From: Candidatus Aldehydirespiratoraceae bacterium
GTDB taxonomy: Bacteria > Actinomycetota > Acidimicrobiia > Acidimicrobiales > Aldehydirespiratoraceae
NCBI GenBank assembly: GCA_965243715.1
Contig: CBDEVU010000017.1
Span: 241,223 to 305,222 of the forward strand
DNA length: 64,000 nucleotides
Direction: 5' to 3'
Positions 1 through 57,452 of the stretch are shown one piece after another. Position numbers and translations under genes: made by a program. Every line of letters starts with the position of its first letter. The first letter of the stretch is position 1. A model generated the notes under the pieces. That model was not told the DNA's origin, searched no databases, and was given only the letters and a program-made list of their open reading frames with translations.

Positions 1-2
1 AC

Positions 3-332
3 AACGAGTACAAAGCACGAGCCGAGGTAGCTATCGAAGTCGGGTACGCGGAACTCGCAATTGCCTACCTCGCCGCCCGCACCAGTCAACTAAATAACGT
101 GGTCATGATGTCCCAAGCTATAACGGAACAGATCAGTGGTCTACGGCGCTCCCAGATCAACCGCACAGCACTCAGGGCTACGGTTGCTCCCGGTCGTAGT
201 TTCTGTTCGGACACAAGCACACTCATAAAACGATTACTCCCGAACGTCGCTGGTGACCTCCGGCAGGCTCTGCAAGACCTCGCAAAACGCTGTAAGTCAG
301 TCGATGAGGCGTTGCACTATATGGCACATTAA
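3..332 (+). CDS. hypothetical protein, C-terminal fragment (gene begins upstream of the window)
   Basis: Frame 3 is open from nt 3 to the TAA at 330-332 (NEYKARAEVAIEVGYAEL...DEALHYMAH). The stop overlaps the next ATG (TAATG). A+T-rich like the following gene. No domain recognised. Confidence 0.45.
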   Translation, partial: NEYKARAEVAIEVGYAELAIAYLAARTSQLNNVVMMSQAITEQISGLRRSQINRTALRATVAPGRSFCSDTSTLIKRLLPNVAGDLRQALQDLAKRCKSVDEALHYMAH

Positions 333-874
333 TGGAGGCATCCATGTTCAACCGCCCACTCTTACAGAAAATCCGAAGAATCACCAAAAAATTAGGTACA
401 TCCGTGAAAATGATTAACCGACCGCGCTTGCGTCAAATCCAAAACGATATCAATAAACTAGGTAACCTGTTAAATAGGATCGACGCGGCTCTCGTAATTC
501 GCGACCCAGGGAACGCTCGGTCCGCTGACGCCTACGACGGACTTCGTAAGATGATTGTCGCGGGCGGTAAAGGGCGCCGAGATCATCTTCATAACCTAGT
601 GGACCTCGCTCAAGCCCTCGAACGGGGTGCTACGCTAGAGACTATCCGAGAACGAACCGAAGAGTGGTGTGATAAAGCGGGTATTATACGCCACGAGTCG
701 CCTGAACCCGCTGACTACTTTATAATTGTCGAAGGTGAAGGCTCAGTGATCGAAGTTGTCACGCCCGCATGGATAGACAAAGACACTTCAACATTGATTC
801 GCAAGGGCACGACTCGTCGAGTTCCCAATCCTGATCCCAACACTGATTCGACTGAAGTCGAGGAGGAAACATGA
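332..874 (+). CDS. hypothetical protein with a basic helical N-terminus and a small beta-rich C-terminus; speculative GrpE-like exchange factor
   Basis: 180-aa ORF. Its ATG overlaps the upstream stop, and its TGA overlaps the ATG of the first Hsp70 gene (ATGA at 871-874). The C-terminal GSVIEVVTPAWIDKDTSTLIRKG loosely resembles the GrpE C-terminal motif (G.V..V.QKGY....R.IR.A.V). Very A+T-rich: 44 of 120 nt are G+C at 361-480, counted by hand. Confidence 0.6.
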   Translation: MEASMFNRPLLQKIRRITKKLGTSVKMINRPRLRQIQNDINKLGNLLNRIDAALVIRDPGNARSADAYDGLRKMIVAGGKGRRDHLHNLVDLAQALERGATLETIRERTEEWCDKAGIIRHESPEPADYFIIVEGEGSVIEVVTPAWIDKDTSTLIRKGTTRRVPNPDPNTDSTEVEEET

Positions 875-2583
875 CAAGCATTGGTATCGATTTCGGTACA
901 ACAAACTCGGTAGTGGCCAAATGGTCATCCGAAGGAGCAGAGGCTCTGGCAATCGACGACCCTCTCAACGAATGGACAACCCTCGGCTTCGATAAAGTAA
1001 TGCCATCGGTCTTCGCGAAATCGCCGGAGGGTGAAGCCCTTTTCGGTTGGGCGGCCAAAGGATGCAGCACCGGTCGGTTCGAGGCGGTGAAACGACTATT
1101 CGCGACCCAACAGGACTCGATAGTTGATGACTATGGCGATACGTTCGCGGTCGAAGAAGTAGCCACCATGCTATTTGCCGAACTCAAAGCCGCTACCGTT
1201 CGTCAAGGCGTCGCCGCTACTCAAGCGGTCGTCACCGTTCCGGCTAACTCGCGTGGCCTCGCTCGGCACCGTACAAAAATCTGCGCGAGTATGGCTGGAT
1301 TCCAGGTACTAGCCCTCATCAACGAACCAACCGCGGCGGCGATGGCGTATGCGGCAAAAAACCCCGGTGATCAACAGATCCTAGTGTTCGACTGGGGCGG
1401 TGGCACACTCGATGTCACCATCCTTCAGTCTGTTTCCGGTGTCTTCATGGAGCAGGCCTCCATGGGCCTTCCCACCACAGGAGGTCTGGACTTTGACTCA
1501 AGGCTCCGCAAACTCATCTTGAAAACCGTTCCAGATCGGAGCTTCTGGACTAATAATGACCTCCGCCAGTTCGACCTTGACGTCGAACTAGCTAAAATCA
1601 ATTTATCCGAACGAGATTCCACGATAGTCCAGTTACCGGGTGGCGATAACCGAAAGATCACTCGCGGAATGTTTGAGGATAGCATCGACGGTTTGATCAA
1701 GAAGGCGAGGCATCCAATCGAGCAATGCTTGAGAGATGTCGGCGCGGATTCCGGTTCGATCGACTCGGTTATCATGGTCGGAGGAACCACCAAAATTCCG
1801 GCCATACGAAAGTTCGTTAGAGATTTGTTAAACTTGGATCCACAAGACGGCGTTGATCCCATGACGGCGGTGGGTGAAGGCGCCGCGATTGCTGCAGCAA
1901 TCCTAACCGGCGAACTCGAGGACAACGACTTCTACGTTGCTACCGAACACGCCCTCGGAACTATTGCCACCTCCGGCCATAACCGGCTACCAGAGTTCAG
2001 CGTTCTGATACCACGGAACCACAAACTACCGGCAGAGAAGACTAACACTTACGGACCTTCACGCCCTGAGCAGGAAGTTGTAATCATACCTGTCATCGAA
2101 GGGGACCCCGAAAAAGGCATTAACCATCCCGACAACGTGATCCTAAAAGAGTGGGAGTTACCATTACCTGGTCAACCAGGAGACCCGGACCGATCTCTCG
2201 AGGTCACCTACAATTACGACGTAAATGGAATCCTAGATGTTAAAGTCGTCGATGTCGCAAGCGGCGGAATCATGTTGGAGGACGATGTTTCCTATGGCAT
2301 CTCCACTGACAAACGTGAAATGATACGGATTTCTCGGCAGGCTCAGAACATCGTCGGCGAAGGACGTGTGCCCGATAAGAGAGCCACTCCAACGATTACT
2401 GATCCCAAGTCGGTTCTTCTACTTCAGCAGGCCCACGTAAAGGTCATCCCGTTTCTCGACGGAGACGAAGCGGATGAGATCCGAGAAGCGGCCCACCAGC
2501 TAGAAAATGCCACAGAAAAGGAAACCGACGGGGCACAGAGCCACTTGGAGACCTTACTCTCAGCCTACACATACCTATTCTGA
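871..2583 (+). CDS. non-canonical Hsp70-family ATPase (HscC-like), paralogue A
   Basis: Hsp70 nucleotide-binding motifs are intact: GIDFGTTNS (phosphate 1), NEPTAAAMAY, DWGGGTLDV (phosphate 2), VGGTTKIP (adenosine). A beta substrate-binding-domain-like segment (EVTYNYDVNGILDVKVVD) is followed by a short helical tail. No canonical DnaK C-terminus. Confidence 0.9.
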   Translation: MTSIGIDFGTTNSVVAKWSSEGAEALAIDDPLNEWTTLGFDKVMPSVFAKSPEGEALFGWAAKGCSTGRFEAVKRLFATQQDSIVDDYGDTFAVEEVATMLFAELKAATVRQGVAATQAVVTVPANSRGLARHRTKICASMAGFQVLALINEPTAAAMAYAAKNPGDQQILVFDWGGGTLDVTILQSVSGVFMEQASMGLPTTGGLDFDSRLRKLILKTVPDRSFWTNNDLRQFDLDVELAKINLSERDSTIVQLPGGDNRKITRGMFEDSIDGLIKKARHPIEQCLRDVGADSGSIDSVIMVGGTTKIPAIRKFVRDLLNLDPQDGVDPMTAVGEGAAIAAAILTGELEDNDFYVATEHALGTIATSGHNRLPEFSVLIPRNHKLPAEKTNTYGPSRPEQEVVIIPVIEGDPEKGINHPDNVILKEWELPLPGQPGDPDRSLEVTYNYDVNGILDVKVVDVASGGIMLEDDVSYGISTDKREMIRISRQAQNIVGEGRVPDKRATPTITDPKSVLLLQQAHVKVIPFLDGDEADEIREAAHQLENATEKETDGAQSHLETLLSAYTYLF

Positions 2584-2610
2584 TATGGCCGTAGTAGTCG
2601 AGGAGAAAAT

Positions 2611-4323
2611 ATGACAAGCATTGGTATCGACTTCGGCACAACGAACTCGGTAGTGGCCACTTGGTCACCCAAAGGGGCCGAGGCGCTGGCAATCGACGAC
2701 CCTCTCAACGAATGGGCCACCCTCGGATTCGATCGCGTCATGCCTTCGGTTTTCGCGAGATCGCCGGATGGTAAGGCCCTTTTCGGTTGGGCGGCCAAAG
2801 GCTGCAACTACAGTCGATTCGAGGCAGTGAAACGACTTTTTGCGACCCAACAGGACTCAATCATCGACGACTCGGGCAATACATTTTCGGTCGAAGAAGT
2901 GGCCACCATGCTGTTTGCTGAACTCAAGGCCGCTACCGCTCGTCAGGGAGTCGACGCTACTAAGGCGGTCGTCACCATTCCGGCGAATTCACACGGCCTC
3001 GCTAGGTATAGAACGAAACTCTGCGCGGGTATGGCTGGTTTAGATGTGCAGGCCCTTATCAATGAACCAACCGCGGCCGCTATGGCGTATGCATCGAAAA
3101 AGCCCGGTGATCAACAACTCCTAGTGTTCGACTGGGGCGGCGGCACGCTCGACGTCACTATTCTTCGGACTGTTTCAGGCGTCTTTCTAGAGCAGGCCTC
3201 CATGGGTCTTCCCACCAAGGGAGGCCTGGACTTTGATTCGAGACTGCGCGAAGTCATCTTGAAAACCGTGCCCGATCGAAGCTTCTGGACGAACGTTGAC
3301 CGGTGGCAGTTCGATCTCGACGTTGAACTGGCGAAGATCAATTTGTCCGAACGCAAGTTTACTATAGTTCAGCTACCGGGTGGAGATAATCGAAAAATCG
3401 CCCGGGAAATGTTCGAGGATAGTATCGAGACTTTGATCAGTGAAGCGAGGCATCCCATCGAGCAGTGTTTGAGCGATGTCGGCGCGGGATTCGGTTCGAT
3501 TGACTCCGTGGTCATGGTTGGGGGCACTTCGAAGATTCCGGCGGTACGACGGTTCGTTACGGAGTTGCTACAACTAGAGCCAGAAGTCGACGTTGATCCC
3601 ATGACGGCGGTCGGTGAAGGCGCAGCTATCGCCGCGGCAATCCTCAGCGGCGATCTTAAGAACAACAAGTTCGCTGTCTCTACTGAGCATGCGCTCGGGA
3701 CTATTGCTGTCTCCCAGCAAAGCCAGACACCGGAGTTCAGCGTTCTGATACCGAGGAACCACAGACTGCCAGCTAAGGAGACCGAAACATATTCACCGGT
3801 CCACGCTGAGCAGAAGGCTGTAGTTATCGACGTCATCGAAGGGGATCCCGAAAAAGGCGTTGATCACCCCGACAACATAATCTTGAAAGAGTGGACGGTA
3901 CCACTGCCCGGTCAACCAGGAGATCCGGACCGATCTTTCGAGGTCACCTACAATTACGACCTAGATGGAATCCTGCATGTACTCGTTACCGATTCCGCGA
4001 CCGATGTTATTATGCTGGAAGATGTCGTTTCCTACCGCATCGCCAATAACAAATTTGAACTGGTTCGGATTGCTCGGAGGGCGAATAGGGTCGTCGCCGA
4101 CCGCGAAATGCCCGACAACGTCTCCACCTCAACAACAACTGATCCCGAGTCGGTACTTCTACTTCAGCGAGCTAAAGTTAAAGTCATCCCGTTTCTCGAC
4201 GGAGACGAAGCGAGGGAGATCCGAGAAGCAGTCCGCCGGTTAGAAAATGCCGCCGACAGTGACCGCCACGAGGCAATGACCCGGTTGGAAACCTTGCTCG
4301 CGCCCTACATCTTTCTCTTCTGA
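2611..4323 (+). CDS. non-canonical Hsp70-family ATPase (HscC-like), paralogue B
   Basis: Same motifs as paralogue A (GIDFGTTNS, DWGGGTLDV, VGGTSKIP) and the same length. By eye about three quarters of residues are identical to A, with most divergence in the last ~110 residues. Confidence 0.9.
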   Translation: MTSIGIDFGTTNSVVATWSPKGAEALAIDDPLNEWATLGFDRVMPSVFARSPDGKALFGWAAKGCNYSRFEAVKRLFATQQDSIIDDSGNTFSVEEVATMLFAELKAATARQGVDATKAVVTIPANSHGLARYRTKLCAGMAGLDVQALINEPTAAAMAYASKKPGDQQLLVFDWGGGTLDVTILRTVSGVFLEQASMGLPTKGGLDFDSRLREVILKTVPDRSFWTNVDRWQFDLDVELAKINLSERKFTIVQLPGGDNRKIAREMFEDSIETLISEARHPIEQCLSDVGAGFGSIDSVVMVGGTSKIPAVRRFVTELLQLEPEVDVDPMTAVGEGAAIAAAILSGDLKNNKFAVSTEHALGTIAVSQQSQTPEFSVLIPRNHRLPAKETETYSPVHAEQKAVVIDVIEGDPEKGVDHPDNIILKEWTVPLPGQPGDPDRSFEVTYNYDLDGILHVLVTDSATDVIMLEDVVSYRIANNKFELVRIARRANRVVADREMPDNVSTSTTTDPESVLLLQRAKVKVIPFLDGDEAREIREAVRRLENAADSDRHEAMTRLETLLAPYIFLF

Positions 4324-4324
4324 C

Positions 4325-4723
4325 ATGATTGAACGTCGCAATCCTTATCTGATTCTTGGCCTCGACTTCGCCGCGAGTCCCAAAGAGGCATCGATCGCCT
4401 TTGCTAAGACGACTAAACGGATTCGTCGCGGTAATACGCCGTTCACGATGGAGGACGTGACGTGGGCGTTACACCAAATCGAACAAGCGTCCACGGACCC
4501 ACTTATTAACCTCAACGTCTACCGGGTGCCCGCCGACCCGACCGTATTTAGAGCGCCAACCGCGCTCGGTGCAGTAACCGGGCCCCCCATGAACCTCGAT
4601 CGTCAGTCCCCCACCGACCCAACGGTACTCACCCAACTACGGGCGAAAGCTCTCACCGACGAGCTATCTGGCCCGCTTCTCGCTCAGGCTCTGGGGCCCT
4701 TTGTCGATGCGCCAGAACCCTAA
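4325..4723 (+). CDS. J-domain-like protein lacking the HPD motif
   Basis: The ATG lies 1 nt after the paralogue B stop. The N-terminus NPYLILGLDFAASPKEASIAFAKTTKRIRRGNTPFTMEDVTWALHQIEQ matches the J-domain pattern (xxYxxLGL...A....I..A...) through helices I-III, but has RRGNTP where HPD is expected. The C-terminal half is Pro-rich and low-complexity. Confidence 0.55.
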   Translation: MIERRNPYLILGLDFAASPKEASIAFAKTTKRIRRGNTPFTMEDVTWALHQIEQASTDPLINLNVYRVPADPTVFRAPTALGAVTGPPMNLDRQSPTDPTVLTQLRAKALTDELSGPLLAQALGPFVDAPEP

Positions 4724-4780: not shown

Positions 4781-6067
4781 TCAGGCCAGCAGCGCACGGC
4801 ATTGCTTGCTCCGCTCAGTGACGAGCGCCACAAGTCGGGCCGGTAACTCGTTTGAGGTTTCGCTAATAACGCATTCGCGGGCCGCTTGGTCGATGGCTTC
4901 CGGCGTGCGTTCGGCCAAGTCGCTTACCCTTGCCAGAAGCCGGTCTCGGTCGAGTTTGAGTTCGTCGGCGGCGTGCTCCCACGCGCGACGGCGATCAATG
5001 CGACGGAGCTTGTAGTCGTCACCGATTTTCATAGCCATCTTTACCTTGAACCCGTTGGTGTCGTCGTAGGGGAGAATCGAAGCAATGTCGTACAGGGGAG
5101 CCAAACGGATCTGAGTCCCCGCCAACAAAAAACTGTAGTTCTTCGCGTGGGCGTCGGTTCCCGCAATTATCCAGTTGAAGGCGAGAGCGTCAACGAACCG
5201 CCAAACATCGGTCTCGGCGTCGGAGCCACGGACTGTCGATCGGATGAGTTCCACGATCTGGCGGGTACTCGGCCCGCCATCAGCTTGATACTTGCGGACG
5301 GGAGACACCGACATCGCCTGACATAGATCCTCTTGGTGGACACGGCTCAACCCTTGGTCACCGGCGATGCGATCGAAGCGTTCAACGACGATGACGCTCT
5401 CGTCTTCGAATGTCTCAATTCTCGTCCTTGCTGCGGGAAGGCCCAGAACTCGCGCCGTGGCAAGGCACAAATGCTCATTGAGATCTTGACCCTCGAATCC
5501 CGAAATCGCCGGTTTGAGAATGTGAGTGGTGGGAACCGTTCCCGTCGGTGCGCCCCAACGACCGTCGGCGTAGTGCAGTGCGGTCTTGGCTTGGGCTCCA
5601 CCGAGGCTGAACTGGCCGGTGAACCCGGGACCGAGCCAACTGGTCGAATCGGTTCGCAGGGTCCGCAGACGTAACGCGATATCGGACTCGGTGAGCCACG
5701 TAATCTCCCCGATTCGGTTGAGGAGATTGTCGACCTCGTCGGCGGCGCAAAACTGCACTGCACCAGCGCAGTCATAGCCGACCTGAGTTCCGAGCAGCGG
5801 AAAGGGAGACGCGACCGAGACCCCAAACTCGCGACCCCACCTACTGAGAACGTCGGCGTTGTCGGGCAGCAACCCCCACAGCCACGGGGTAAGGCGAGCG
5901 TCGCTGTACCCTTCTTGTGTTGGAGGCATCGAAACCGACAACGCCGTCGCCGCCGGATCGTCCCGGTAGCCTTGATCATAGCGGATACCCAGAGCACCAC
6001 TTGCTAACCGTTGCACGGTTCCGATCGACTGGCCGTCCAAAATGACGCTCAACTCGTCCGACGCCAT
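4781..6067 (-). CDS. hipA: type II toxin HipA-family Ser/Thr kinase
   Basis: 428 aa. HipA N-terminal coupling-domain-like start (LSVILDGQSIGTVQRL...) and a kinase catalytic loop TDAHAKNYSFLL (D-x-H-x-K-N). The start overlaps the stop of the upstream HTH gene. Confidence 0.9.
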   Translation of the reverse strand: MASDELSVILDGQSIGTVQRLASGALGIRYDQGYRDDPAATALSVSMPPTQEGYSDARLTPWLWGLLPDNADVLSRWGREFGVSVASPFPLLGTQVGYDCAGAVQFCAADEVDNLLNRIGEITWLTESDIALRLRTLRTDSTSWLGPGFTGQFSLGGAQAKTALHYADGRWGAPTGTVPTTHILKPAISGFEGQDLNEHLCLATARVLGLPAARTRIETFEDESVIVVERFDRIAGDQGLSRVHQEDLCQAMSVSPVRKYQADGGPSTRQIVELIRSTVRGSDAETDVWRFVDALAFNWIIAGTDAHAKNYSFLLAGTQIRLAPLYDIASILPYDDTNGFKVKMAMKIGDDYKLRRIDRRRAWEHAADELKLDRDRLLARVSDLAERTPEAIDQAARECVISETSNELPARLVALVTERSKQCRALLA

Positions 6068-6333
6068 TAGGACCTCTCACCCAGGATCTGACCAAGGTCG
6101 ATACGCCCTACGGCGAGGTCCGGATGAGGAACGAAGATCACCTCGAGATCGAGAGCGCTCACCACCAACAAGGCACGGCCTAGTTCGACGGTGCGTTTAC
6201 CGTTCTCGAGTTCGGACAGCCAGGATCGCCCTACTCCTGCCAGCGCGGCCAGTTCAACCTGGGACAGTCCTCGCTCTTTGCGGGCTTGGCGAACCGCCGC
6301 CCCGAACTCTTTGCTAGTCTGAATTGGCCTCAT
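6067..6333 (-). CDS. hipB: XRE-family HTH antitoxin (HipB-like)
   Basis: 88 aa with a Cro/C1-type HTH (FGAAVRQARKERGLSQVELAALAGVGRSWLSELENGKR). Lies directly upstream of hipA and overlaps it. Confidence 0.85.
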   Translation of the reverse strand: MRPIQTSKEFGAAVRQARKERGLSQVELAALAGVGRSWLSELENGKRTVELGRALLVVSALDLEVIFVPHPDLAVGRIDLGQILGERS

Positions 6334-7280: not shown

Positions 7281-8969
7281 ATGACCGCCCCTGCAACCCC
7301 TTTAGGCTTTGGCGGACTCGGCCTACGAGACGAACTAGTTCAGACCACCACCGACCTCGGCTATGAAGAGCCGACACCAATCCAGCGCGAAGCAATTCCG
7401 CCTATGCTGACCGGCCGAGATCTTCTTGGTCAGGCCGCCACCGGTACGGGCAAGACGGCAGCTTTCGCCCTGCCGGTTCTCAACGCCATCGAGCCGGGGG
7501 CGGAGGCCGTCCCGACCGTGCTAGTGGTAGTGCCAACCCGCGAACTAGCGGTGCAGGTCAGCGAGGCGCTATTCAAATACGGTTCCCGCCAACGCATCAA
7601 AGTCGTGCCGATTTATGGCGGCCAGCCGATTCATCGCCAACTGCAGGCTCTACGCCGCGGGGTCCATGTGGTTGTGGCCACCCCCGGCCGGGCTATCGAT
7701 CACATTCGTCGGGGCTCGCTCGAACTCAACAAAATCCGCACCGTTATTCTTGATGAAGCGGACGAGATGCTCGATATGGGTTTCACTGAGGACATCGAAA
7801 CCATCCTTGACAGCACCCCGAAGGATCGACAAACCGTACTCTTTTCGGCCACCATTCCGGCCCGCATCGAAGCCATTGCGAGGAAGTACCAAACCGATCC
7901 GATTCGGATCAAGATTGCTGCGGGCGAGGCCGCGGCCACTAAGGCGCTTATTCGCCAGACTGCCTACGTCGTTACCCGCTACCACAAGTCCTCGGCTCTC
8001 GGTCGCGTGCTCGATATGGAAGGACCAACCGCCGCTCTAGTGTTTTGTCGCACGCGCGGCGAAGTGGATGAACTCACCGCCACTATGAACGGGCGCGGCT
8101 ACCGGGCAGAGGCACTCCACGGCGGCATGGATCAACCCCAACGCGACCGAGTGATGGGTCGCCTTCGTGATGGCACCGCGGAACTTCTCGTCGCGACCGA
8201 CGTCGCGGCCCGCGGGCTCGATGTTGACACCTTGACCCACGTCGTGAACTACGATGTCCCCAACGCCCCAGATAGCTATGTTCACCGCATTGGTCGGGTC
8301 GGCCGAGCTGGCCGCGAAGGCGTGGCCATCACCCTGGTCGAACCGAAGCAACGTCGCCTGCTCCAAAACATCGAACGTCTAACTAAGCAGACCATCGCTA
8401 TCGAAAAGGTACCCACCGTTGGCGACCTACGCGACAAGCAGATCGAAACAACCGTGGACGCCATTCGCGAGGCCATGACGGCCGACGATCTCGAGAACTA
8501 CTCCACTGTTCTGCGCGGACTGTCTGACGATGGCCGCGATCGCACCATCGCCCTCGCCGCGATCAAGCTCTTCCATCAGGCGCGGGGTGCCACCACCGAC
8601 GAGGTCGAAATCCCCGATGCTTCCGAACGCATGCTGCGCGACGATCGGCCCAACAAGAACAAAAAGTTCCCCAAGGACAAAAAGTTCCCGAAGGGCGCCA
8701 AGGGCAAGCAACAGGTCGGCAACGTCGGTCCCGGCACCGGCCTTATCTTCGTTGCGTTGGGGCGCAAGGCGGGCCTGCGACCCGGTGATCTTGTCGGTTG
8801 CATCGCTAATGAGACCAATCTCACCGGCCGGGAGATCGGACCGATCCGAATCACCGACAACTACTCGGTAGTTGGCGTTCCTGAACAAACCGTCAACGCA
8901 ACGATTACCGCTATCAACGCATCAAGCATCCGCGGCAAGCCAGCCCGGGCCCGCAAATATGTCGCCTGA
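7281..8969 (+). CDS. deaD: DEAD-box ATP-dependent RNA helicase with a C-terminal DbpA-type RNA-binding domain
   Basis: Q-motif PTPIQ, Walker A AATGTGKT, DEADEML, SAT, HRIGRVGRAG. I chose the ATG at 7281 (MTAPATPLGF) rather than the track start at 7254. Confidence 0.9.
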   Translation: MTAPATPLGFGGLGLRDELVQTTTDLGYEEPTPIQREAIPPMLTGRDLLGQAATGTGKTAAFALPVLNAIEPGAEAVPTVLVVVPTRELAVQVSEALFKYGSRQRIKVVPIYGGQPIHRQLQALRRGVHVVVATPGRAIDHIRRGSLELNKIRTVILDEADEMLDMGFTEDIETILDSTPKDRQTVLFSATIPARIEAIARKYQTDPIRIKIAAGEAAATKALIRQTAYVVTRYHKSSALGRVLDMEGPTAALVFCRTRGEVDELTATMNGRGYRAEALHGGMDQPQRDRVMGRLRDGTAELLVATDVAARGLDVDTLTHVVNYDVPNAPDSYVHRIGRVGRAGREGVAITLVEPKQRRLLQNIERLTKQTIAIEKVPTVGDLRDKQIETTVDAIREAMTADDLENYSTVLRGLSDDGRDRTIALAAIKLFHQARGATTDEVEIPDASERMLRDDRPNKNKKFPKDKKFPKGAKGKQQVGNVGPGTGLIFVALGRKAGLRPGDLVGCIANETNLTGREIGPIRITDNYSVVGVPEQTVNATITAINASSIRGKPARARKYVA

Positions 8970-9852
8970 CCTTTCGCCGATCGAGCGCTTTGCCGCGGGG
9001 GCGACAATTGCCGACCTGCCCCTCGACGACATGATGGCGGCCTTTCACCGCGACGGAGCGTTCATCGCCGAAGGACTCTTCGCCCCTGACGTCATCGACC
9101 AGATGCTTGCCGACGCTGACCGTAAAGCAACCGAGGTCGAACCTGGTTCGGCCACGCAGGGATTTGGCGAGGAAGGCAAACTTTTTGCGGGCCAAAACAC
9201 CATCCGTTTCTCCAGTTTGGGCAAAATCTCGGCGGCCTATTTTAAGATGCTCGACAACGAGCGTTACGCGGCATTGGCCGACGCTGTTCTCGTCGATTGT
9301 CCTGGCAAGTACTGGGTCAATACCGGCCAGGTCATGTACATCGGTCCCGGCGAACCCGCCCAGGTACTGCACCGCGACGCCAGCAACTGGTGGGAGTACG
9401 TCAAAGTCACGTGGCCGAACGGGCCGGAGATCACCGTGAGCGCCATGATCGGCCTTGTTGCAACAACGGAAGAACTCGGCGCGACCCGTGTTGTCCCTGG
9501 AAGCCACCGCTGGACTGACCTCGAACGGTTCACTCAACTACCGTCAGTCCCCGCTGAACTCGGTCCCGGCGACGCTTTAATCTACTCGGGCTATGTCCTT
9601 CACGGCGGCGGTGAAAACCGGACAACCGACCAGTGGCGCAAAGCAATGCACCTTAGCTTTGTGGCCGGTTGGCTCACCCCTGAAGAGTCCTGCGCCATCG
9701 ACTTTACCCACGCGGAACTCCAGGTTCAGTCGCCGAGGGTTCAGCGCCTCCTCGGGCACCGCTCTTACAACCCGAGTCCGTCTCCTGGTGGCGGTTTGTG
9801 GCTGCGAAACGTCAGCGCTATCGAAGAAGCACCCCATATCAGGATGGTTTGA
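8959..9852 (+). CDS. phytanoyl-CoA dioxygenase (PhyH) family Fe(II)/2-oxoglutarate oxygenase
   Basis: PhyH-like N-terminus (FHRDGAFIAEGLF) and an HRD iron-ligand motif (VLHRDASNW) with a distal His (YVLHGGGEN). The ATG at 8959 overlaps the deaD end by 11 nt, so the track start at 8872 lies inside deaD. Confidence 0.75.
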   Translation: MSPDLSPIERFAAGATIADLPLDDMMAAFHRDGAFIAEGLFAPDVIDQMLADADRKATEVEPGSATQGFGEEGKLFAGQNTIRFSSLGKISAAYFKMLDNERYAALADAVLVDCPGKYWVNTGQVMYIGPGEPAQVLHRDASNWWEYVKVTWPNGPEITVSAMIGLVATTEELGATRVVPGSHRWTDLERFTQLPSVPAELGPGDALIYSGYVLHGGGENRTTDQWRKAMHLSFVAGWLTPEESCAIDFTHAELQVQSPRVQRLLGHRSYNPSPSPGGGLWLRNVSAIEEAPHIRMV

Positions 9853-25606: not shown

Positions 25607-25690
25607 GCGGGCGTGGTGGAATTGGTAGACACGCCAGGTTTAGGTCCTGGTACCCGAAAGGGTGTGGGGGTTCAAGTCCCTCCGTCCGCA
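25607..25690 (+). tRNA. tRNA-Leu (anticodon TAG), class II with a long variable arm
   Basis: Hand-folded. Acceptor GCGGGCG/CGTCCGC (one G-U pair), anticodon stem CCAGG/CCTGG with loop TTTAGGT, T-arm GGGGG-TTCAAGT-CCCTC, discriminator A. No encoded CCA. Confidence 0.9.
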
Positions 25691-27169
25691 CTATTGACAG
25701 TTAGATCCCACTTCGGTCAAGGCGATCTGATAAGCCGCCGTACGCTGGCCGACCGTGACCACGAGCGAATCACCGTCCACGTCGACTCGGGCGCCGAGAC
25801 CACCGCTGATCTGCCACCCGCCCGGGCTCACTCCCTCGACGCGAAACGTGGTCGTGGTCTCGGGGTCTTCGGTGAGTGGGGCCACCTCAACGCAGAGCGT
25901 TTCCCCTTGCCATTCGGCTTGACGTAAGGCGATCCGCGGGAAATCCACTCCCGTTACCAGCGGACACGGAGCCAGCGGAGCCGCCGACAGTCGCTCCCAG
26001 CGCCCCAGTCCGCCTGCTTCTGCCGCGGCCAAAAAGGCATTGTATTGGCCCCGTGGATGGGGTTCGTTGAGCCCCATCCCCCACGTGAACTCGCCTCGGG
26101 CATGATCCCAGGTGGGTTCGAACGAGGACTCAATGGCAGCCTCCAACCGTGCCGCAAGATCAGCGCATCCCCACTCTCGAGCGAGGAGCAGAGAGGCCGC
26201 CGCGCCGCGGCTGGCGGGCAGGGGATGGCGAAGTTCACCGAGGTAACCGGCCGAGGCACACGAGGCGTCCCACAAACGCCGCGCGTCGTCGCTCTCTTGG
26301 GGCGCGGCGTAGAACGAGGTCACATTGGCCAGTGCGGCGGACTTGCGGTGATGTACGTCAAGAATTGGGTCGTAGTAGAGCGTCGTCATCGTCGGCGGTT
26401 CGTCTCGATCGAGATCGAGGTAGTGCTCTCGAGCGTACTTCCACCAAGGACCGAAGGCTTGTGCGTTGTAGTCAGTGCCGTGTCGATTGTCGTAAAGTCT
26501 CAGACCGAGACCTGCTCCGGCCAGTCAAAGCGGCCAGACCTTGGTGTTTTCTCAATGACAGCCCACCGGCGCGGCCAGCCACTGACGACACAACGACTCA
26601 GCGATCTCGCCGTGGGTCCAGGTGAACGTGTTGGCGCCATCGTTGATCACCGTGAACGGCTCGTTCCAACGATCATCACCCGCAATCATCGAACGAATAC
26701 CCAATAGCACTAAGAAGAAGCCCTTGTAAAAGAGCATCCCGTCGGCCGCGATAGGGTCAATTTGGCGACCCCACGGCTCAACACCGTTAGCGGTCCAGCC
26801 CGGCGCATCGTAATGGCCGAACAACTCGGGCGGAATCAACAACCGATAGAAGTCAGGATAGTTGGCTCGATCAGGGTCAGGTCCGAATTGGGTAAGCCAA
26901 TCAGCGGCCGACCACCATTGGGTGTGTCGTTGGATCAACTCGTCGAGAATGGCGACATAAGGCTCGGTCCAGGCGGGCGTCCGATGGGCCATAAGACCCA
27001 TCGCGTACGATGAATCCACTAGGTCGAAGCGGTGCCAACTGGCCATCGGAGGGTCGGAACGATCATCCCAGTGGGGATGGGGCCGACCGGTTCGCGACCA
27101 GTCGTCGGGCGTCCGGGCCTTACGGTCGAGATACCGAAGCCAACCAATAGAGCGGTCAGAAAGCGTCAT
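25691..27169 (-). CDS. linalool dehydratase/isomerase-like protein, one frame containing two in-frame TGA codons (candidate selenocysteines; alternatively a pseudogene)
   Basis: The track ORFs 26552..27169 and 25691..26389 are in the same frame. The only interruptions are TGA at 26552-26554 and at 26525-26527 (...PVGCH*ENTKVWPL*LAGAGLGLRLYDNRHGTDY...). The start ATG overlaps the stop of the upstream DMT gene (ATGA). Family assignment comes from my recalled Ldi sequence blocks (FYKG..., C-E-x7-C, HGTDY). Confidence 0.6.
26495..26513 (-). promoter_or_regulatory. SECIS-like hairpin downstream of the second in-frame UGA
   Basis: The mRNA folds as AGGUCUC[GGUCU]GAGACUU, a 7-bp stem. The loop occupies nt +22 to +26 counted from the U of UGA, placing G23/U24 as I recall for the E. 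coli fdhF SECIS. Confidence 0.45.
26516..26538 (-). promoter_or_regulatory. hairpin downstream of the first in-frame UGA (weaker SECIS candidate)
   Basis: UCUGGCC[GCUUUGACU]GGCCGGA, a 7-bp stem (one G-U) at +17 to +39 from the first UGA. The loop contains the second UGA. Confidence 0.3.
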
Positions 27170-52233: not shown

Positions 52234-52243
52234 TTGGAGAAAT

Positions 52244-52360
<117 letters not shown>

Positions 52361-52523
52361 TATGTTGTCGTCGCAGCCTCCTAGCTGCCCACCCTCAACC
52401 GAGGGGACAAAAGAACATGTGCACCGTGATGCGGTGCGAAGGATAGCCGAGGTCAGACCCCAGACCGCTCCTTCAGAACTCCATAGCGAACACGAACACC
52501 CAGATCAATTGATCAGAATGTAA

Positions 52524-55605
<3,082 letters not shown>

Positions 55606-55928
55606 TCTACATTAAAATTAAAATATCAAAGCAGTTGTCCGAAGACATCTGCTTAGATGCTCGTGCTCGCTATGCAATTCTCAAGAAGCTAAAGACAACA
55701 ATGCGCCCGACCAATGGCCGAGCGCAGCGGTTGCCAGAAGAAACGGATAGACCGCTCCCTCAAAGCGGAAGAGACGAACACCAATCATTGCGCTCCGAGT
55801 AGTGCGCCTTCGCGTTAAAGAAGGAGCCTCGTGAGGGCAAGGACTGATCATCCAAAACCGTAACGAGTGCCTAACTGGGAATCTCTCGAGTCGCCGACTC
55901 ATACGAGTCAGAACCATCGAGAGAGACT

Positions 55929-57452
<1,524 letters not shown>

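Follow-up and report, generated by a model that had tools for sequence, protein, structure and literature searches.

A conserved Hsp70 cassette with GrpE-like, HPD-less J-like and large TPR-like components in a low-GC block of a Candidatus Aldehydirespiratoraceae contig

The locus described here occupies positions 1-4723, on the plus strand, of a 64-kb stretch of DNA (hereafter the window) from contig CBDEVU010000017.1 of a Candidatus Aldehydirespiratoraceae bacterium (assembly GCA_965243715.1), and it encodes two Hsp70 proteins together with three further products. In the interpretation that we favour, and that we regard as reasonably probable, these genes make up the 3' portion of a conserved, horizontally mobile four-component Hsp70 machine which is dedicated to one partner and works as an ATP-driven conformational switch, most likely in conflict or stress sensing. 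The four parts would be a large partner protein termed BIG, a GrpE-like exchange factor, a divergent Hsp70 that is duplicated in this strain lineage and a J-like adaptor that lacks the HPD motif. The evidence consists of the co-occurrence and fusion of these genes in other loci, of the residues retained and lost in the Hsp70s and of the predicted folds of the smaller proteins.

Results

Co-occurrence, gene order and distribution of the cassette

Related loci were collected in two ways. A genome scan and contig look-ups, with phmmer and hidden Markov model (HMM) searches, yielded 85 loci, and 80 metagenomic loci were gathered by seeding on the GrpE-like gene alone, which makes them an independent test of the association. 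Among the metagenomic loci with enough sequence, an Hsp70 of the same family as those of the window (hereafter family Hsp70) was found downstream of the GrpE-like gene in 56 of 56 and BIG was found upstream in 43 of 43, and the J-like module was present in all 21 for which both flanks were available. An earlier annotation made from the letters of the window and their open reading frames (ORFs) (hereafter the sequence-only reading) had suggested the small proteins as possible partners of the Hsp70s, and the counts for the family Hsp70 and the J-like module in these seeded loci agree with this. In the loci examined the GrpE-like gene stands immediately upstream of the family Hsp70, with a single exception: in L005 (5330-9719, beside BREX), BIG is directly followed by the Hsp70 and a GrpE-like gene was undetected.

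The commonest gene order is BIG, J-like, GrpE-like and Hsp70, so that the window, where the J-like gene comes last, represents a minority arrangement. Fusions of the J-like module to BIG are frequent, being found in at least 17 loci (for example L004 5618-7252 and L092 5960-7327, where the J-like domain is joined to a shortened BIG), and one representative protein of 1142 amino acids, P0153, fuses BIG to the GrpE-like module. The quartet was found in genome loci of the Actinomycetota Lentzea, Streptomyces and Streptosporangium; in Planctomycetota and in an Alcaligenaceae metagenome-assembled genome (MAG), the searches recovered no more than the Hsp70 and the J-like domain, and the proteins encoded upstream of them were rich in TPRs. 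The distribution of the family is patchy across phyla. Neither of the two co-chaperones has a model in Pfam, NCBIfam or PADLOC, and a literature search returned no paper on the stand-alone cassette.

Organization and composition of the locus

Five consecutive plus-strand ORFs make up the locus. The first, whose frame is open from base 3, comprises 109 codons plus stop and ends at position 332 (1-332); it is the C-terminal part of BIG. It is followed by the gene of the 180-residue GrpE-like protein (332-874), which lies directly upstream of Hsp70 A (570 amino acids, 871-2583), then by that of its paralogue Hsp70 B (570 amino acids, 2611-4323) and finally by that of the J-like protein of 132 amino acids (4325-4723). 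The start of the GrpE-like gene overlaps the stop of BIG in the sequence TAATG at 330-334, its own stop overlaps the start of Hsp70 A in ATGA at 871-874, and a single nucleotide, at 4324, separates Hsp70 B from the J-like gene. Between the two Hsp70 genes lies a 27-nucleotide spacer (2584-2610) in which the ribosome-binding region is duplicated, the sequence GTCGAGGAG[G/A]AAA[C/T]ATGACAAGCATTGGT being present before each Hsp70 start. The duplicated unit begins about 15 nucleotides ahead of each Hsp70 ATG, and its self-similarity by blastn is about 79% (856-2587 versus the equivalents in 2596-4251). Signals for an internal promoter or terminator in the cassette were not found above chance. On recheck, the ORF positions and all the junctions given in the sequence-only reading proved exact, as did its hand counts of G+C (44/120, 56/120 and 82/120).

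The G+C content (GC) of positions 1-4723 is 53.8%, versus 61.0% in the remaining window, and is the lowest among 593 sliding windows of the same size across the 64 kb; GC at third codon positions (GC3) is also low in the cassette. The atypical composition that had been noticed earlier is thereby confirmed, whereas the term A+T-rich holds relative to the host and fails in absolute terms, the region still being above 50% GC. The one other low-GC stretch in the window, at 52.2-57.5 kb, was considered as a second island and rejected, since it is accounted for by a complete rRNA operon (5S, 23S and 16S) on the minus strand at 52242-57452. The cassette is thus the window's one low-GC protein-coding block. 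Low GC and GC3, taken with the patchy phyletic spread, point to mobility, and composition and spread together support the earlier description of the locus as accessory and acquired. Neither a tRNA gene nor an integrase marks the right edge of the island within the window. A lone tRNA-Leu gene is located at 25607-25691, distant from the cassette.

Divergent Hsp70s with conserved catalytic residues

Both 570-residue products match the Pfam profile HSP70 (PF00012) over nearly their full length, with E-values of 4e-69 for Hsp70 A and 4e-68 for Hsp70 B; in Hsp70 A the match extends over residues 4-562 of 570 and over profile positions 2-586 of 599. The proteins consist of a nucleotide-binding domain (NBD), a beta substrate-binding domain (SBD-beta) and a short lid, and they end in Y-x-Y-L-F. 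In alignment A7, which includes DnaK, HscA and HscC of E. coli as references, the catalytic equivalents of DnaK D8, K70, E171, D194, T199 and D201 are all conserved. The profile matches and this alignment confirm what had been read from the sequence, namely that these are non-canonical members of the Hsp70 family whose ATPase motifs are intact.

Other positions depart from DnaK. The residue equivalent to DnaK R167 is Ala in Hsp70 A, and Ala or Thr in every family Hsp70 of alignment A7. The hydrophobic VLLL of the DnaK linker is replaced by DFYV (Hsp70 A reads DFYVATEHALG), and the loop formed by DnaK residues 290-295, which constitutes the GrpE signature (Mayer 2021, PMC8215388), is deleted in the family.

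Identity to the E. coli proteins amounts to 31.6% for DnaK, 30.9% for HscA and 30.8% for HscC. In a rough neighbour-joining tree of 75 Hsp70s, which contained one HscC reference and was computed with no bootstrap, the family forms a long-branched clade of its own apart from DnaK, HscA and HscC, and E. coli HscC is placed in another part of the tree with DnaK and HscA sequences. The nearest named relative of the window Hsp70 comes from an Acidimicrobiales MAG. HscC proteins are described as having 550-580 amino acids, a deletion of DnaK residues 76-101, an L1,2 insertion of 4-8 amino acids, a short helix B and no GrpE-signature loop (PMC8215388), the NBD deletion being also present in many non-proteobacterial DnaKs (Mayer 2021, PMC8215388). 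The Hsp70s studied here have 570 amino acids, a deletion of 22-24 amino acids, an L1,2 insertion of 5 amino acids, a short lid and the deletion of the 290-295 loop. The resemblance to HscC that had been pointed out earlier therefore holds for length and indels, and it does not extend to sequence identity, which is no higher than to DnaK, to the position in the tree or to the possession of an own GrpE-like gene.

Duplication and strain variation of the Hsp70 genes

Hsp70 A and Hsp70 B share 75% amino-acid identity. The ratio of nonsynonymous to synonymous substitution rates (dN/dS) between them is 0.14 in the NBD, rises to 0.26 for SBD-beta and reaches 0.61 in the lid; the two copies evolve under purifying selection that is weakest in the lid. 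About 110 related loci have a single Hsp70, and the earlier proposal that two tandem Hsp70s form the core of the system is not sustained. No second family Hsp70 adjoining the first turned up at any of the other loci, whether from genomes, contigs or metagenomes, which indicates that the duplication behind the pair in the window is confined, among the loci seen, to this strain lineage; one other locus, L169, has two family Hsp70s, the second being 5.6 kb away.

Variation within the strain lineage could be followed in L001, a metagenomic contig of 2.8 Mb that is 98.9% identical to the window. Hsp70 B differs between the two at 48.5 positions per kb, compared with 4.7 per kb for Hsp70 A and 0-8 per kb for the flanking genes, which makes it roughly ten times as divergent as its neighbours, and relative to its counterpart at L001 11741-13468 it shows a 15-nucleotide indel at window position 4119 and 26 amino-acid changes. 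The high synonymous divergence between strains speaks less for positive selection than for an allelic replacement or an assembly mosaic; overall, the difference could be due to allelic replacement, recombination or an assembly mosaic. Gene conversion from Hsp70 A was considered as a cause; at 62 of 68 sites one of the two strain alleles is the same as in A, but given the divergence between A and B about 79% of sites would show this by chance, and the observation was not counted as evidence. The best explanation for Hsp70 B is that of a recent paralogue diverging in its client-facing lid.

Predicted folds of the GrpE-like and J-like proteins

A word-indexed search returned just two homologues of the 180-residue protein and an exhaustive HMM search was required, with which the family reached 332 representative clusters at E<=1e-3. 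The AlphaFold2 model, for which a 72-sequence alignment from the exhaustive search served as input, has a predicted local distance difference test (pLDDT) score of 88 and contains helices at residues 30-57, 62-97 and 102-115 and a beta domain at 118-164, and the predicted structure thus displays the GrpE topology of a long N-terminal helix, a helical bundle and a C-terminal beta domain. When this model was compared with the PDB by Foldseek, the seven top matches were all GrpE, with a best E-value of 1.5e-3 and a probability of 0.99 (9a81, 3a6m); a profile search against PDB sequences did not find GrpE. Support for a predicted GrpE fold is therefore good, and the protein is presumed to be a dedicated nucleotide-exchange factor. 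The possibility of an exchange factor had been raised in the sequence-only reading and is now supported at the level of the predicted fold, whereas the label of small helical protein was wrong in this case, given the modelled C-terminal beta domain. A transmembrane-like C-terminus was noted in 16 of 150 GrpE-like representatives, and also in the GrpE-like proteins of L004 and L007.

For the 132-residue J-like protein, the AlphaFold2 model has a pLDDT of 81.6, with values above 89 for residues 1-60, and helices at 7-11, 19-34, 42-57 and 61-65. The protein is built of an N-terminal four-helix J-type domain, an invariant YRVPADP sequence and a C-terminal amphipathic helix. Its top 50 Foldseek matches are mostly J domains and are weak (best E 0.079, probability 0.95), and its profile reached DnaJ among PDB sequences only at E 0.84. 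Helix II is basic, with many Arg and Lys residues. The HPD motif is absent, RR.RR or RK being found at the HPD position in every clade of alignments A2 and A8, the latter with DnaJ, DjlB, DjlC and HscB of E. coli as references. The predicted J-domain fold has moderate support, and with it, and with the missing HPD, the earlier assignment as an HPD-less J-like protein.

In the DnaK-DnaJ complex, Arg167 of DnaK forms a pair with the Asp residue of HPD. That the Hsp70s have lost Arg167 and the J-like protein has lost HPD suggests, from sequence comparison, that the interface between the two has been re-wired and insulated from the host DnaK/DnaJ.

BIG, the presumed large partner

The first ORF of the window proved to be the C-terminal 109 codons of BIG, a gene of 871 codons which is present as a whole at L001 6847-9462, most of it corresponding to sequence upstream of the window. 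The sequence-only reading had counted this ORF among two small helical proteins, which is incorrect; its expectation that the system is larger than what is visible is borne out by the same upstream extension. BIG starts with a zinc ribbon (CxxCG..CxSCG) and continues into an all-helical, TPR-like body, over which homologues were aligned in A5. Its Pfam matches are weak and restricted to TPR and zinc-ribbon profiles, its profile search against PDB sequences gave nothing beyond TPR and zinc-ribbon noise, and no model for it was found in Pfam or NCBIfam. It shows no similarity to YbeQ, the Sel1 protein of the E. coli hscC locus.

Genomic neighbourhood

At its right end the cassette is met by a converging toxin-antitoxin pair on the minus strand (4781-6333), made of hipA (428 amino acids; HipA_C E 4e-53) and hipB (88 amino acids; HTH_3). 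The hipBA module that had been reported to abut the locus is thereby confirmed by Pfam, and it is not kept beside the cassette in other loci. On the upstream side, L001 1-6747 carries a type I restriction-modification system (hsdR/S/M) and genes for a 318-residue Macro-domain protein, a 224-residue protein and a 434-residue membrane protein, none of which is kept beside the cassette elsewhere. The 434-residue protein, encoded directly upstream of BIG in L001, has two Ig-like repeats of about 150 amino acids (weak Ig match, E 2e-4) and a poly-Thr linker, and searches of the remaining loci from the genome scan and the contig look-ups found no homologue of it.

Close relatives of the cassette lie beside BREX (bacteriophage exclusion) systems, type I restriction-modification systems, CcdA/PemK, NERD, helicases and an integrase. 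Genes of vWA, PP2C and kinase-like proteins recur next to about a third of the loci, a vWA/kinase-like cluster being present in 10 of 29 and a PP2C cluster in 6 of 29 (for example L008 8873-12931, L129 14744-19103, L165 1516-4517 and L169 1808-4726). These neighbours resemble a signalling triad of the TerY-P type. GTPase genes occur in Streptomyces loci only, where two of them follow the quartet; the Streptosporangium quartet has no adjacent GTPases, and no GTPase was found among the called genes of L001 or in close relatives.

In a Streptomyces/Streptosporangium clade, a Zc3h12a-like NYN RNase domain (PF11977) takes the place of the Hsp70 lid, with scores of 29-33 bits for a threshold of 23. 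Pfam detects this domain in L009 (about 8570-9115, where two GTPase genes follow), L023 and L013; in L010, L012, L014 and L036 it was judged from C-terminal motifs, and in L011 the Pfam score of 16 bits is below the threshold. The lid replacement and the Streptomyces GTPases connect the family with the conflict systems centred on GTPases that Kaur et al. 2020 predicted, as these are presented in the passages of that paper available to us.

The earlier assignment to a conflict-type system goes further than the evidence: several close loci sit in islands of restriction-modification, BREX and toxin-antitoxin genes, but this is guilt by association, and 22 further loci gave a mixed picture. The evidence for a defence role of the cassette is suggestive only.

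Discussion

Taken together, these data are consistent with an Hsp70 cycle of which the partners are encoded in one cassette. In the mechanism that we propose, the J-like protein would dock on the NBD of the Hsp70 by its basic helix II, and the pair would be insulated from the host DnaK/DnaJ, the HPD-Arg167 interface having presumably co-evolved away. The J-like protein would then present BIG, or something bound to BIG, to the substrate-binding domain, a step in which YRVPADP may take part, and the GrpE-like protein would reset the cycle. The TPR-like part of BIG may in turn serve as docking site for the conserved Y-x-Y-L-F tail at the Hsp70 C-terminus, by analogy with EEVD tails and TPR co-chaperones.

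Several results weigh against this interpretation. Profile searches with HSP70, DnaJ and GrpE models, as proposed in the sequence-only reading, found HSP70 in both 570-residue products, but the DnaJ and GrpE profiles matched none: Pfam GrpE (PF01025) had no match at E<=10 in 23 GrpE-like members, and Pfam DnaJ (PF00226) had none at E<=1 in the J-like protein. By hhalign, the GrpE-like protein is colinear with E. coli GrpE at a level that is not significant, and the J-like protein has no significant similarity to four E. coli J domains (probability 4.9%); the Foldseek E-values of the J-like model are all above 0.05. Since the GrpE-signature loop is deleted in the Hsp70s, exchange activity is not assured. 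No enzymatic effector could be recognised in the cassette of the window type, in which BIG gives its weak TPR and zinc-ribbon matches. With PADLOC, none of the five products encoded in the window qualified as a known defence protein, the single hit being a weak one between Hsp70 B and PDC-M61B (E 8.6e-4), full-length BIG not being included in the scan, and in the 22 further metagenomic loci few neighbours match PADLOC models and some are housekeeping genes. Searches of phages and viral contigs yielded no family members, and those of plasmids gave matches of DnaK level only.

A more specific version of the conflict interpretation, to which we give a doubtful standing, is a stand-alone immune or abortive-infection switch driven by the Hsp70, in which BIG would sense a protein of the invader and the Hsp70 cycle would activate an effector. 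Equally tentatively, this effector might be BIG itself in the window and the fused NYN RNase in Streptomyces, and the second Hsp70 might widen the range of targets. Slightly easier to entertain, and still rather improbable in our judgement, is the main rival, a specialised chaperone without any part in conflict, whereby the Hsp70 and its co-chaperones would serve the folding, assembly or regulation of BIG, or of a complex in the membrane or cell wall, within envelope or stress physiology. It would then have its parallels in HscA/HscB, which act on Fe-S clusters, and in HscC/DjlB/DjlC at the membrane. Such a role agrees with the cassette of the window type having no toxin or nuclease that could be recognised, with the fusion of the J-like domain to RDD (membrane) or PG_binding_1 in relatives, with the transmembrane-like C-terminus of some GrpE-like representatives (16/150) and with the many housekeeping genes among metagenomic neighbours; moreover, HscA and HscC are examples showing that a bacterial Hsp70 with partners of its own does not have to serve defence (PMC8215388). 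However, the sporadic spread across phyla and the atypical composition mark the cassette as accessory, it recurs by restriction-modification, BREX and toxin-antitoxin genes and integrases, and one clade fuses the Hsp70 to an NYN RNase beside GTPases predicted to act in conflict.

The two remaining explanations, which assign the locus to systems already described, are much less probable. The GAP1-N2 double-GTPase (DO-GTPase) systems are predicted conflict systems of which HSP70+GrpE+DnaJ/TPR is one theme, according to the passages available of the paper describing them (Kaur, Burroughs, Iyer, Aravind 2020, eLife; PMC7159879), and the cassette could in principle be a degenerate remnant of one of them, no longer a functional unit after loss of the GTPases, GAP1 and FNIII, which we consider very unlikely. 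As far as the same passages go, the likeness includes an Hsp70, a GrpE-type factor and a DnaJ-type or TPR protein in one operon, the occurrence in Actinobacteria and Planctomycetes, the membrane or cell-wall linkage of some parts and the presence nearby of vWA/PP2C/kinase-like genes, which recall the third theme of that paper (PMC7159879); in addition, the Streptomyces homologues of the window Hsp70 and GrpE-like genes belong to a quartet that is followed by two GTPases. The window cassette and most of its about 100 relatives differ in showing no DO-GTPase, no GAP1, at which no search was aimed, and no conserved FNIII protein in the loci searched, and in having as partner the zinc-ribbon/TPR-like BIG, for which Pfam and NCBIfam hold no model. 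Against a remnant, the quartet without GTPases is the common form and co-occurs completely in dozens of independent loci from several phyla, none of its genes in the window is disrupted and they are closely coupled and subject to purifying selection, and Streptosporangium has a quartet without adjacent GTPases. The loss of HPD, the loss of Arg167 and the fusion to an NYN RNase were not found in the passages available of Kaur et al. (PMC7159879).

We find it harder still to credit an orthology of the Hsp70s with HscC, by which the locus would be the local counterpart of hscC-djlB-djlC in E. coli, a membrane-associated system concerned with Cd2+ and UV (ultraviolet) tolerance. The E. coli locus (ybeQ-ybeR-djlB-ybeT-ybeU-djlC-hscC) also combines a short Hsp70 with dedicated adjoining J proteins and TPR-like (Sel1) proteins and is likewise sporadic in distribution, and its Hsp70 has in common with the present ones the length, the deletion corresponding to DnaK 76-101 in the NBD, the L1,2 insertion (5 amino acids here), the short lid and the lost GrpE-signature loop. 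However, identity to HscC (30.8%) is not above that to DnaK (31.6%) or HscA (30.9%), and the neighbour-joining tree sets the family apart as a clade of its own on a long branch. Furthermore, the tail-anchored DjlB and DjlC keep an HPE motif where the J-like protein has no HP(E) at all, a GrpE-like gene is obligatory here whereas GrpE is thought unnecessary for HscC (PMC8215388), which has no GrpE partner, and a BIG homologue is absent from the E. coli locus, BIG being without similarity to YbeQ.

Two further systems help to place the cassette that we interpret as a dedicated, partner-bound Hsp70 machine. With DnaK-DnaJ-GrpE it would share an Hsp70 ATPase with its catalytic residues kept, a J-type activator and a GrpE-type exchange factor. 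It differs from that system in the identity of about 31%, the replaced R167, the change of VLLL to DFYV, the deleted GrpE-signature loop, the missing HPD, the fourth obligatory partner BIG and the accessory, mobile distribution. The type III CoCoNuT protein CnuD provides an example of Hsp70-like proteins in predicted defence operons, often beside type I restriction-modification or BREX (PMC11090510). In both cases an Hsp70 NBD/SBD unit is recruited, and the theme of an RNA-targeting effector appears here in the clade with the NYN RNase fusion. Unlike CnuD, however, the present cassette has no McrB/McrC (DUF2357) genes and its ATPase residues are intact, whereas the Walker-like motifs of CnuD are degenerate, and CnuD has no GrpE-like or J-like partners.

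For chaperone biology, the cassette would represent a natural Hsp70 cycle that seemingly operates without the HPD-Arg167 contact, which is treated as universal, and with a GrpE-fold partner that is present although the canonical GrpE-binding loop is gone, so that it offers a test case for the insulation of orthogonal Hsp70 systems from DnaK/DnaJ. For conflict biology, it is a compact and widespread four-gene unit that can be cloned and challenged directly, and it opens a way into the Hsp70 branch of the systems centred on GTPases that were predicted in 2020, the clade with an Hsp70-RNase fusion among them. If the immune-switch possibility were true, the cassette would be a defence system driven by a private Hsp70 cycle in which an otherwise universal contact, that between HPD and Arg167, has been abandoned.

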